The notes: generated by a model not told the origin, from the letters alone. Counted from the first letter of the stretch, positions 4,539 through 52,408 are shown. The stretch: 64,000 nucleotides of DNA from an uncultured virus (IMG/VR IMGVR_UViG_3300002071_000003) (IMGVR_UViG_3300002071_000003:1-64000), one strand, 5' to 3'. Numbers and translations are program-made.

Positions 4539-4991
4539 TCAAATATCTCGATACCAAAGTTGCTTAGGCCCCATCAAATGTTGCTCAACGGACCGAGCAG
4601 ATCGCGTAGGACCGTCATGGTGCCACCCAATCGGATGCGACATTCGATCAAACTTCCAGCCAGCCGCTTGTAAAGATGTCCCTCGCTCATCCGATAGGAT
4701 ATAGGTCTGAATGCGTTTATACCCCAAAACTTTGCCTGCTCGTGCTGCTGCGCCGTATAGAAAGGAGCAAGCGTTATGAGTACCGTCAGTACAAAGTCTC
4801 GTGATTTCAAGCCAATCGCCTTGGTGCTGCCCACCAACTGGTCGCCCAACAATGGCCACTCCAACAAGGTGATCTTCTTCATACGCACCCAACGAGAATC
4901 TATGGCCCTGAACACGCTGATGATGACGATGAAACTCTTCCACGAAGGCATTAGCTTCCTTAAGTTCGACATGTAGTAACCGAAGGCCCAT
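4539..4991 (-). CDS. XF1762-family / Mom-like GNAT-fold protein
   Basis: EANAFVEEFHRHH, GVAIVGRPV, LEITRLCTDGTHNACSFLYGAAARA, TYILSDERGTSLQAAGW. Confidence 0.8.
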   Translation of the reverse strand: MGLRLLHVELKEANAFVEEFHRHHQRVQGHRFSLGAYEEDHLVGVAIVGRPVGGQHQGDWLEITRLCTDGTHNACSFLYGAAARAGKVLGYKRIQTYILSDERGTSLQAAGWKFDRMSHPIGWHHDGPTRSARSVEQHLMGPKQLWYRDI

Positions 4992-5181
4992 CTTCCATCT
5001 CCTTTTTGGTATGCCTAGCAAATTTAAGGGACTGTTTCCGTAGGTAGTCAGCCATCTCTTTAAAGTTATTCTGGTCCATAAACTTGATTGCTATATCCAA
5101 ATCTTCTACCTTGCTGATCCCTAAAGTATTCCCTAGGTCAACCATACAATCGTAGAAACTTTCATACATCTTAGTAGTCAT
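4960..5181 (-). CDS. hypothetical protein
   Basis: Coupled ORF within the operon. Confidence 0.55.
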   Translation of the reverse strand: MTTKMYESFYDCMVDLGNTLGISKVEDLDIAIKFMDQNNFKEMADYLRKQSLKFARHTKKEMEDGPSVTTCRT

Positions 5182-28119: not shown

Positions 28120-28848
28120 TTATATGTACCAATGATCGTAGTAACTTATACTTGCTGATCCATCTACTGTAAAGGTTGTTCTTCCCGGCCCCACATATAA
28201 GCGGTAGTCCTTTGTAGTAACAAGCGCGTTCTTATTAACGCCCCCAATTGTAGCCGTGAAGGCTTCTGTATCCACAACCAATCCGGTAACGCCAGTTGTT
28301 ACAATACTGCCTGTAGACTGGCTATCCGCAGTCATACCGCTTATGCTATTCCCTGTTAGTGTTACGATAGTAGGTGTCCAGCCTCCACTATATATTGTGC
28401 GCCCTACTTCATCAGTGTCACTACTTATCACATGAAGTTCCTCACCAATTAACCAAGGGCGGCATTCAAAATCTACCTTATAAGTAAGCTGGCGCACAGA
28501 ACTTCCAGTAGCCTTATCCGTAGTAATAGATTTAACCATTGCAGAATAATGTTTATCCGCATATTGTACGTACAAATTTGCCCATCCGCCTCTATAACTT
28601 CGTAGATACGTAGCAGCTAACTCTACTTGTTGTTTACAGGTTAGGTAGTCTGTTTCCCACACCAGTAACGTCAAAGAAATAACTTTATTTGCTAACCCAG
28701 TCTCTTCTGAAGGGCTTCCGTCGATGTAAGCTCCATAATGTTGTACAACATTCATCATAGAGTCAAAGCTCTCTGATTGAACATAGCCGGGAAGTACGTA
28801 ATTGTTATAACGAGCAAGATATTGCTGCGCTGGACCTAAAGGACTCAT
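28120..28848 (-). CDS. distal tail protein (Dit)
   Basis: Immediately after the tape measure; FECRPW and LYVGPG..TF...YYDHW motifs. Confidence 0.75.
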   Translation of the reverse strand: MSPLGPAQQYLARYNNYVLPGYVQSESFDSMMNVVQHYGAYIDGSPSEETGLANKVISLTLLVWETDYLTCKQQVELAATYLRSYRGGWANLYVQYADKHYSAMVKSITTDKATGSSVRQLTYKVDFECRPWLIGEELHVISSDTDEVGRTIYSGGWTPTIVTLTGNSISGMTADSQSTGSIVTTGVTGLVVDTEAFTATIGGVNKNALVTTKDYRLYVGPGRTTFTVDGSASISYYDHWYI

Positions 28849-48180: not shown

Positions 48181-48257
48181 TGGTTGCGGGAGTGGGATTC
48201 GGACCCACGATTAGCTGCTTATGAAACAGATGAGATAGACCACTTCTCTATCCCGCA
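48181..48257 (-). tRNA. trnM: tRNA-Met(CAU), initiator-like
   Basis: TGCGGGA/TCCCGCA-A-CCA acceptor; loop TTCATAA. Confidence 0.85.
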
Positions 48258-48258
48258 A

Positions 48259-48342
48259 TGGTGGAGTTGTCGGGGCGCTGCCCCCCGAGTTTTTCCTTTG
48301 GCAAGAACTTAATCCCCCCGTGGGAACTTCTAAGTCAACCCC
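48259..48342 (-). ncRNA. Ala-identity tRNA-like / mini-tmRNA-like RNA (84 nt)
   Basis: GGGGTTG/CAACTCC-A-CCA acceptor with G3:U70; T-arm TCGGGG-GGCAGCG-CCCCGA; no canonical D stem or anticodon loop. Confidence 0.7.
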
Positions 48343-48344
48343 AT

Positions 48345-48430
48345 TGGTGGACCGGATAGGACTTGAACCTACACGCCCTAAAGGGACCTGATTTACAGTC
48401 AGGCGAGCCAGCCAATTGCTCAACCGATCC
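48345..48430 (-). tRNA. trnY: tRNA-Tyr(GUA)
   Basis: Cloverleaf with long variable arm; loop CTGTAAA; encoded CCA. Confidence 0.95.
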
Positions 48431-50966: not shown

Positions 50967-51035
50967 TTATCTTCGTGAAATTCCAAATCCACCGAAGACA
51001 AGTAAGAGAATTAAGACTATTACTAATAGCTCCAT
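50967..51035 (-). CDS. 22-aa single-TM microprotein (not in ORF track)
   Basis: GGAGGTA SD; MELLVIVLILLLVFGGFGISRR. Confidence 0.7.
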   Translation of the reverse strand: MELLVIVLILLLVFGGFGISRR

Positions 51036-51055
51036 TTTGTTACCTCCAAGAAGTT

Positions 51056-51995: not shown

Positions 51996-52071
51996 TGGTG
52001 CGCCATGCCGGATTCGAACCGACACATTCAATTTGGAAGACTGACATGCTGCCGTTAGACATTAATGGCGC
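51996..52071 (-). tRNA. trnG: tRNA-Gly(UCC)
   Basis: Loop CTTCCAA; GCG acceptor; A73. Confidence 0.92.
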
Positions 52072-52408
52072 TTTGTTGTTCTTGTTCCCTTTTTATTCTG
52101 CTTTTAGATACCCATACCTTTCCAAACGCAATCCCATTCTCTGTTGCAAATACCGCCCATTCTATAGGCAATTTATTCTCCTTGGCAATATTGCAGGGAT
52201 TACAACTCGGTGTTGTATACGTACCTTCCAAACTCTTAGGGTATACATGATCCCTCGTTACCTCATCCTGCGGAAGGAATCTTCCACAATATGAGCATTG
52301 AATCTGATTGGTCCGTTCATCCCACATGAAATGAAAGTCGAAGGGAAAGTTCCCGGTTATCTTTGCCGCGAATAACCACGAAGTACGCATTCTTCGTTTC
52401 TTTACCAT
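52055..52408 (-). CDS. HNH endonuclease
   Basis: CSYCG...TRDHVYPKS.G...SCNPCNIAK; true start may be the ATG at 52327. Confidence 0.85.
   Translation of the reverse strand: MVKKRRMRTSWLFAAKITGNFPFDFHFMWDERTNQIQCSYCGRFLPQDEVTRDHVYPKSLEGTYTTPSCNPCNIAKENKLPIEWAVFATENGIAFGKVWVSKSRIKREQEQQSAINV

Follow-up and report, generated by a model that had tools for sequence, protein, structure and literature searches.

The 64,000-nt stretch of DNA analysed here (hereafter the window) is part of a 75.9-kb uncultured virus record (IMGVR_UViG_3300002071_000003, here G000), and a 117-kb contig rated 98% complete represents the same phage, the DNA of which was found in peat and soil metagenome runs, with no RNA run among the 13 listed. 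Most of the ORFs called in the window (74 of 82) lie on the minus strand. The large terminase and portal genes are situated just downstream of a tRNA array, which glycosyl and pyruvyl transferases adjoin. Among cultured phages no close relative was recovered, the terminase giving one weak match (23% identity) in the phage collection. ARAGORN called 19 tRNAs in the window, and Rfam at gathering scores returned 19 tRNA matches. The array continues past the window: tRNAs beyond its edge include Ala(UGC), Cys, Ser(UGA), Glu(UUC), Asn, Gln(UUG), Val, Ile(UAU) and Thr, with about nine at roughly 65–71.5 kb of the record besides Ala(UGC), and the complete phage carries some 29 tRNA genes. Some gaps in the array are occupied by other sequences, such as an HNH endonuclease (52055–52408), methyltransferase fragments and, between tRNA-Lys(CUU) and tRNA-His, a GGAGG Shine–Dalgarno-like motif followed by a small ORF that encodes a hydrophobic peptide some 25 residues long (50967–51050, minus strand). 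The gap between tRNA-Tyr and tRNA-Met holds the 84-nt element that is the subject of this report (Table 1).

Table 1. The 84-nt element, its parts and its two neighbours in the window.
Feature	Position	Strand	Remarks
Whole TLD-only mini-tmRNA gene (candidate), alphaproteobacterial ('GGC') type	48259..48342	-	84 nt; models R3 and R1
Acceptor stem, 5' strand GGGGUUG	48336..48342	-	RNA positions 1–7; bears G3 of G3:U70
5' linker ACUUAGAAG, D-loop analogue	48327..48335	-	9 nt; NAGAW motif replaces GYGGWCG of canonical members
Central three-tier hairpin, stub replacing tmRNA helix 2	48293..48326	-	positions 17–50; constrained fold
3' linker AAAC, 5' of T stem	48289..48292	-	AC invariant
T arm, stem UCGGGG/CCCCGA and loop GGCAGCG	48270..48288	-	6-bp stem, 7-nt loop
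Acceptor stem, 3' strand CAACUCC	48263..48269	-	bears U70
Discriminator A73 and encoded CCA end	48259..48262	-	
tRNA-Tyr(GUA), upstream neighbour	48345..48430	-	2-nt spacer to element; ARAGORN, Rfam
tRNA-Met(CAU), downstream neighbour	48181..48257	-	1-nt spacer from element; ARAGORN, Rfam

All seven acceptor pairs of the element form, G3:U70 among them, followed by A73 and CCA, and all six pairs form in a T stem that directly abuts the acceptor stem. The initial annotation, made from the sequence alone, had quoted the minus strand from 48342 to 48259 with G3:U70, A73 and an encoded CCA, which is exact, and its placement of the element 1–2 nt from both neighbours agrees with the spacers in Table 1. 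It had further described the element as lacking a D stem, a U33 anticodon loop and a tag ORF, and had called for comparison with tRNA and tmRNA models and for a search for homologues and covariation. The models bear this description out: ARAGORN reported neither a tRNA nor a tmRNA at the element, no Rfam match at gathering scores fell on it, and between 48100 and 48500 neither the tRNA family (RF00005) nor a tmRNA family matched it at E ≤ 10, the gathering score of the tmRNA model (47 bits) not being reached. Because the mRNA-like domain (resume codon, tag frame, stop codon) is absent from these 84 nt, as are pseudoknots, the element is not to be classed as a full tmRNA. Also absent is the permuted two-piece order, both acceptor strands standing in standard order within the 84 nt, as is a cloverleaf with a D arm and an NGC anticodon arm (ARAGORN, RF00005).

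A reading of the element as an odd or decayed tRNA-Ala(UGC), with UGC at positions 40–42, was rejected: this triplet is not set in a 7-nt loop closed by a 5-bp stem, neither ARAGORN nor RF00005 gives a match, and the phage possesses a normal tRNA-Ala. The latter, a canonical tRNA-Ala(UGC) on the minus strand (G000:70484–70557), lies outside the window, 22 kb from the element. The statement that the array has no ordinary tRNA-Ala thus holds within the window but fails genome-wide, and since the phage encodes this tRNA the element is no stand-in for it.

The predicted fold of the element is mildly better than those of shuffled sequences (z = −2.0), a value at which fold energy alone proves little. 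A constrained fold based on homology (−30.4 kcal/mol) is 1 kcal/mol worse than the minimum free energy fold (−31.4 kcal/mol, pairing 8–12 with 31–35 and 16–21 with 26–31), yet it fits the layout of all the other members described below, and the minimum free energy fold was not adopted. The plan common to all members runs from the acceptor through a 9–12-nt single-stranded linker, a central hairpin and a 4–5-nt linker ending in AC to the T arm. In the window element the inner stem of the central hairpin pairs G29-A30-U31 with U36-U37-C38 and closes on the loop UAAG. Comparison by eye shows that the sequences of two syntenic relatives, L004 and L007, share such a UARG-capped inner hairpin, in which the changes are compensatory, and the central hairpin of L004 likewise has three tiers. 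A scan for structure only (G3:U70, A73, an NCA tail, 7/7 acceptor and 6/6 T-stem pairs) over both strands of 522 kb, comprising the window and related loci, gave ten matches: eight are the element and its family, one is a 125-nt variant and one, inside mycobacteriophage DS6A, is likely false. The 84-nt element is more than a chance architecture.

The terminase recovered 30 related loci. In the four contigs with 85–87% identical terminase, ARAGORN leaves a gap of 91–92 nt between tRNA-Tyr and tRNA-Met, and this gap holds elements of 88–89 nt. They share the ends and the G3:U70 pair of the window element, have six pairs in the T stem and the standard T loop UUCGACU, and show compensated changes in the acceptor (AUG/CAU, UCG/CGA). 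The best Rfam match of these syntenic alleles is the tmRNA family RF00023, in an alignment that spans both ends and omits the middle, at scores (19.9 and 21.7 bits; 28.4 and 30.2 in the genome search) below its gathering score of 47. The window element is 57–60% identical to the syntenic alleles (L004, L007) and is without the GYGGWCG linker motif and UUCGA T loop that these have. In more distant relatives either a version of 118–119 nt lies just 5' of tRNA-Met (L019, L025) or the slot is occupied by a tRNA-Thr.

Pattern scans added members from viral contigs that are unrelated and for the most part GC-rich. All 14 viral matches pair at 13 of 13 positions, as against one of the 11 matches that the same pattern gave in bacterial species genomes. 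In an alignment of nine distinct family members, every acceptor and T-stem cell is paired (117/117) and G3:U70 is present throughout (9/9); six of the 13 pairs, including four of the six T pairs, have changed on both sides, the outermost T pair occurring as five types (AU, UA, CG, GC, GU), and the observed covariation score was reached by none of 500 shuffles. The search for homologues and covariation thus returned a family with covarying stems, to which the window allele's own sequence adds no covariation because it is known from one phage population and one identical 103-nt fragment only. An exact 19-mer scan for more copies of this allele found only its twin contig, a metagenome scan that used the Tyr and Met ends as anchors gave three contigs, all already known, and BLAST of the element and of two members of the GGC subclass described below returned nothing useful.

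A model built from seven phage members, the window left out (R1), scores the window element at 27.1 bits (E = 0.0067), compared with at most 21.6 bits for ordinary tRNAs and 16.2 bits for the phage's own tRNA-Ala, and it finds one place in DS6A (28478–28560; 32.1 bits). R1 alone cannot separate these elements from every tRNA-Ala, because a probable tRNA-Ala(UGC) missed by ARAGORN (L041:355–429; acceptor GGGGCUA/UAGCUCC, anticodon loop UUUGCAA) reaches 33.7 bits. The T stem has six pairs in all collected members, so that acceptor and T stem make 13 stacked pairs, as against 5 + 7 in DS6A and the cellular tmRNAs that we read; the search patterns fixed the 6-bp spacing and would have let 5-pair forms escape, and part of this universality thus stems from the patterns. 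A 6-bp T stem could alter uptake by EF-Tu, SmpB or the ribosome.

Several larger or less regular RNAs were seen among the related loci. The 118–119-nt versions (L019:5121–5239, L025:2008–2125; phages with 60–61% identical terminase) have a long three-segment helix with compensatory changes, closed by an AU-rich loop of about 20 nt, the sequence of which (UAUAUUUAUUUAUU) is conserved. A GCU-started frame that might have served as a tag ends at UGA in L019 and is shifted in L025 by a 1-nt indel, which makes a conserved tag unlikely, and ARAGORN called no tmRNA in either. The 125-nt variant from the structure-only scan (L014:1601–1725) has G3:U70, ACCA, a 6-bp T stem, a UUCGACU loop and a longer linker (UAUGGUUCGGGCGAC), with R1 aligning to its 3' part only. 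Two tRNA-like sequences (L035 and L040, about 330–447) have a standard T arm, a 6-bp acceptor-like stem and apparently no D arm, and received no convincing call from ARAGORN or the family model. ARAGORN also reported tRNAs with a CUA anticodon, labelled Pyl, in four loci (L010:1881–1954, L021:5769–5844, L024:3548–3623, L030:8015–8088), which could be amber suppressors; no such tRNA occurs in the window phage.

The T loop of the window element is shared with a second set of phage sequences. A scan that fixed only GGGGNNG, AC, a T loop opening with GGC and CUCCACCA gave 35 loci. Ten of these (six distinct sequences, one of which is the window twin) pair at 13 of 13 positions and five more (two sequences) at 12 of 13, while none of the remaining 20 exceeds 10 of 13, the chance background. 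Since members were chosen by full pairing, their 100% pairing holds by construction and the evidence lies in their number compared with chance: as the pattern already fixes four pairs, the remaining nine would all form in about 1.5e-4 of matches by our own arithmetic. The six fully paired sequences have T loops GGCRGYN, 5' linkers NAGAW (with which the window linker ACUUAGAAG agrees only loosely), differing but compensated stems, and G3:U70 in all six. A model of the five non-window members (R3) finds the window element as its top match in 318 kb (45.3 bits, E = 4.3e-8), above the canonical members, with no tRNA at E ≤ 1. Judged from these sequences, the GGCAGCG T loop is not decay and marks a recurrent phage subclass.

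The proposal that the element is tmRNA-like, TLD-only and of alanine identity is upheld by the syntenic alleles, which match RF00023 best although below threshold, by R1, which finds both the element and DS6A, and by R3, which ranks the element first. No GGC-type element was found in the 151 genomes of the Alphaproteobacteria searched, in which a model from the phage RNAs (R2) matched host tmRNA acceptor pieces in four. In the cultured alphaproteobacterial phages phiCbK, Phosso, Kikimora and RpAliso, only pieces that resemble tmRNA acceptors or are imperfect were found. Three of these end in CUCCACCA and are probably the acceptor pieces of phage two-piece tmRNAs: a T arm with acceptor 3' strand and the alphaproteobacterial loop GGCGGUA in Sinorhizobium phage Phosso (PV764938, 350134–350198, minus strand), a similar piece with the loop UGCGAAU in Caulobacter phage phiCbK (JX100813, 103271–103345), and a piece with the loop UUCGACU and a U3·U70 mismatch in Ruegeria phage RpAliso (OR257569, 2874–2956), where the stretch examined carries no annotation at this place.

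The GGCAG T loop had been likened to that of alphaproteobacterial tmRNAs, and the resemblance is close. Cellular T arms were read from genomes sampled from the class to which an Alphaproteobacteria MAG belongs, a permuted tmRNA being present in 39 of the 41. Of 30 loci, 29 were read (one from an unpublished genome was left out) and one lacked CUCCACCA in range, leaving 28. Every one of these has a GGCRGNN loop (GGCGGUA 14, GGCAGUA 9, GGCGGAA 2 and GGCAGAG, GGCAGUG and GGCAGAA once each), and the D loop read in this class is AAAYAGGAUCGAC; the ten tmRNAs read from other phyla all have the T loop UUCRAYU and GGNUUCGAC. The TLD of the alphaproteobacterial two-piece tmRNA (RF04321) shares with the window element the GGCRGNN loop, the AC before the T stem, G3:U70 and the ACCA end, and has, like the phage RNA, a D loop with YAG…A. 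It differs in consisting of two pieces from a permuted gene, in its tag frame (e.g. ANDNRLALAA), its 5-bp T stem and its longer D loop, whereas the phage RNA is one contiguous piece of 84 nt with a hairpin in place of the remaining tmRNA. In the elbow of a tRNA, the GG of the D loop contacts T-loop positions 55 and 56, and position 54 pairs with 58. In cellular and phage RNAs alike both elbow partners change together, which to judge from the sequences may reflect a working elbow. Departures from the standard loop are on record: a passage of PMC1168896 describes GG for UU in the T loop of the mitochondrial tmRNA of Reclinomonas americana and, in Caulobacter, a change of U to G.

The two styles of elbow appear to have been exchanged between near relatives. 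Contigs from a soil run (X6) match the window flanks at about 95% (eight differences and one gap in 163 nt; 11 differences in 210 nt) and diverge exactly at the borders of the element, their loose ends belonging to a canonical element (GGGGUAGAGUGGACGA… …GGGGUUCGACUCCCCUCCUACUCCACCA), though these contigs are short and of low depth. Phages of the L004 type match the same flanks over the tRNAs only, at 74–86%. Because a much closer relative thus carries the other style, replacement rather than drift is indicated. A further contig (run X7), also short and of low depth, shows no difference from the window across tRNA-Met and the final 28 nt of the element and diverges downstream. As a tentative view, possible though as yet the less probable one, we suggest that the mini-tmRNA is a swappable, host-matching cassette, in which at least two elbow styles copy the tmRNAs of host groups and are exchanged, between conserved flanking tRNAs, by phages that are otherwise about 95% identical; the GGC loop with NAGAW may stand for alphaproteobacteria and the UUCGA loop with GYGGWCG for most other bacteria. 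Style would then report, and perhaps help to set, whose SmpB is disarmed.

Taken together, the sequence comparisons support reading the element as the gene for a TLD-only tmRNA (mini-tmRNA) of the DS6A kind, in alphaproteobacterial style. The kind is already known, since DS6A has been published as TLD-only (listed as a 'TLD only' tmRNA in a passage of PMC4131195). The DS6A RNA (JN698994, 28478–28560) is likewise phage-encoded, about 83 nt long and in standard order, with an acceptor bearing G3:U70 and A73 and with a T arm, and like the window element it has no message, tag or pseudoknots. It differs in its T loop UUCGAUU, 5-bp T stem, longer D loop (…GGUGGUCGAC) and ACUA end, as against the loop GGCAGCG, 6-bp stem, linker ACUUAGAAG and encoded CCA of the window RNA, and it stands alone after gp33, outside any tRNA array, whereas the window RNA is flanked by two tRNAs; at E ≤ 1, R3 gives no match to the DS6A RNA. 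Message-less tmRNAs of jakobid mitochondria and the plastid tmRNAs of Mallomonadaceae, compared by description only, are similarly reduced to an alanine-accepting tRNA-like part, but they are non-viral organelle genes outside tRNA arrays, mostly in two pieces (the message-less mitochondrial tmRNA of Jakoba libera being contiguous, as described in part of PMC3590771), with a nucleus-encoded SmpB. With tRNA-Ala the element shares G3:U70, A73, CCA and the T arm, and it differs in having neither D stem nor anticodon arm. In the openly accessible papers searched, DS6A is the sole phage TLD-only tmRNA described, and within the same scope an alphaproteobacterial-style phage subclass and an exchange of styles between near-identical phages are absent. 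What the present locus appears to contribute is that TLD-only RNAs are regular members of phage tRNA arrays, and that they form a family kept by compensatory evolution, with a second style copying the alphaproteobacterial T loop.

Trans-translation is the main ribosome-rescue path of bacteria. No match to SmpB (PF01668) was found in G000 and five related records, one of them 98% complete. By analogy with a known inhibitor of tmRNA, we lean, with modest confidence, towards the view that the element engages host SmpB and thereby blocks or bypasses tagging. A molecule of this sort strongly inhibits tmRNA in E. coli whether or not it can be charged, perhaps by titrating SmpB (Mao et al., 2009, as cited in a passage of PMC4131195); part of PMC11915505 makes the same statement on inhibition and adds plastid tmRNAs of about 65 bp in Mallomonadaceae. 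We infer processing, charging, SmpB binding and an effect on trans-translation for the element along the following course. The mini-tmRNA would be transcribed together with the tRNA array, cut by RNase P at G1 as are the neighbouring tRNAs, and end in its encoded CCA, and AlaRS would charge it through G3:U70 and A73. Its elbow, formed by the T loop GGCAGCG and the linker ACUUAGAAG, would mimic the SmpB-binding end of the host tmRNA, so that the RNA would sequester host SmpB and perhaps EF-Tu and AlaRS as well; in competition with host tmRNA, the products of stalled ribosomes could then escape proteolysis tagging during infection.

The main rival to interference with SmpB is a tag-less form of rescue, in which the Ala-charged RNA enters stalled ribosomes with SmpB and EF-Tu and accepts the nascent chain with no degradation tag, an aid to the phage where host or phage nucleases yield many broken mRNAs. 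The charging signals speak for it: every sequence of both sets (9/9 and 6/6) retains G3:U70, and the alanine identity set and CCA end occur in every member, signals that a pure SmpB sponge would not need, given that the inhibitory molecule worked 'whether or not chargeable' (in a passage of PMC4131195). Message-less jakobid mitochondrial tmRNAs have moreover been read as 'liberating stalled ribosomes' (in parts of PMC3590771 and PMC11915505). We nonetheless hold it to be doubtful, as no release of peptidyl-RNA without a resume codon and stop codon is known, and the cited experiment on such a molecule, reported by way of PMC4131195 in part, gave inhibition rather than rescue. That the element is a decaying or inert copy of a mini-tmRNA or duplicated tRNA-Ala, its T loop and D-loop motif lost, would account for the missing UUCGA T loop and GYGG motif of L004, L007 and X6, for the failure of any Rfam model to match the window allele, and for its 57–60% identity to the syntenic alleles. 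Yet its 13 stem pairs, G3:U70, A73 and CCA are all intact, its T-loop and linker type recurs in five other distinct phage sequences with different, compensated stems, and that T-loop type equals the type of a whole bacterial class. The X6 contigs, so similar in their flanks and wholly different inside the element, fit replacement of an allele better than slow decay in place, and the true phage tRNA-Ala is unlike the element by R1 (16.2 versus 27.1 bits). Decay is on these grounds very improbable.

Still harder to credit is a role as a non-ribosomal donor of alanine, in which the charged RNA escapes translation and feeds an aminoacyl-tRNA-dependent transferase acting on the cell wall, a lipid or a small molecule. 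Alanine identity without an anticodon would suit such a donor, as would the glycosyl and pyruvyl transferases beside the array, and the T loops of tRNAs that serve cell-wall synthesis are likewise non-standard. Among the Pfam matches obtained for 67 ORFs of the window, however, there is no Fem-, MprF- or L/F-type transferase, and the T loop is explained by its likeness to alphaproteobacterial tmRNA, the canonical members having a standard one. The faintest prospect of all, to our minds, is a plus-strand intrinsic terminator made up of the GC-rich T-arm hairpin and a T run on the opposite strand, with an incidental tRNA-like look. A consensus scan does list 48270–48288 (plus strand; tail GTTTTTCC) as terminator-like, although it gave 11 such sites against 5.4 expected from shuffles; 74 of 82 window ORFs are on the minus strand, no plus-strand gene in this ORF call ends at the element, and the acceptor stem, G3:U70, CCA, synteny and family would be left unexplained.

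Returning to the engagement of SmpB, if the style of the elbow matches the SmpB of the host, it would offer a simple sequence marker of the class to which the host of an uncultured phage belongs, and the two styles would form a natural RNA pair with which to test the recognition of the tmRNA elbow by SmpB. Elsewhere in the window, an ORF at 4539–5021 (minus strand) matches the Mom protein family (PF25680, E = 2.9e-9) and adjoins dCMP-deaminase-like and dNMP-kinase-like genes, which hints at DNA base modification in this phage.
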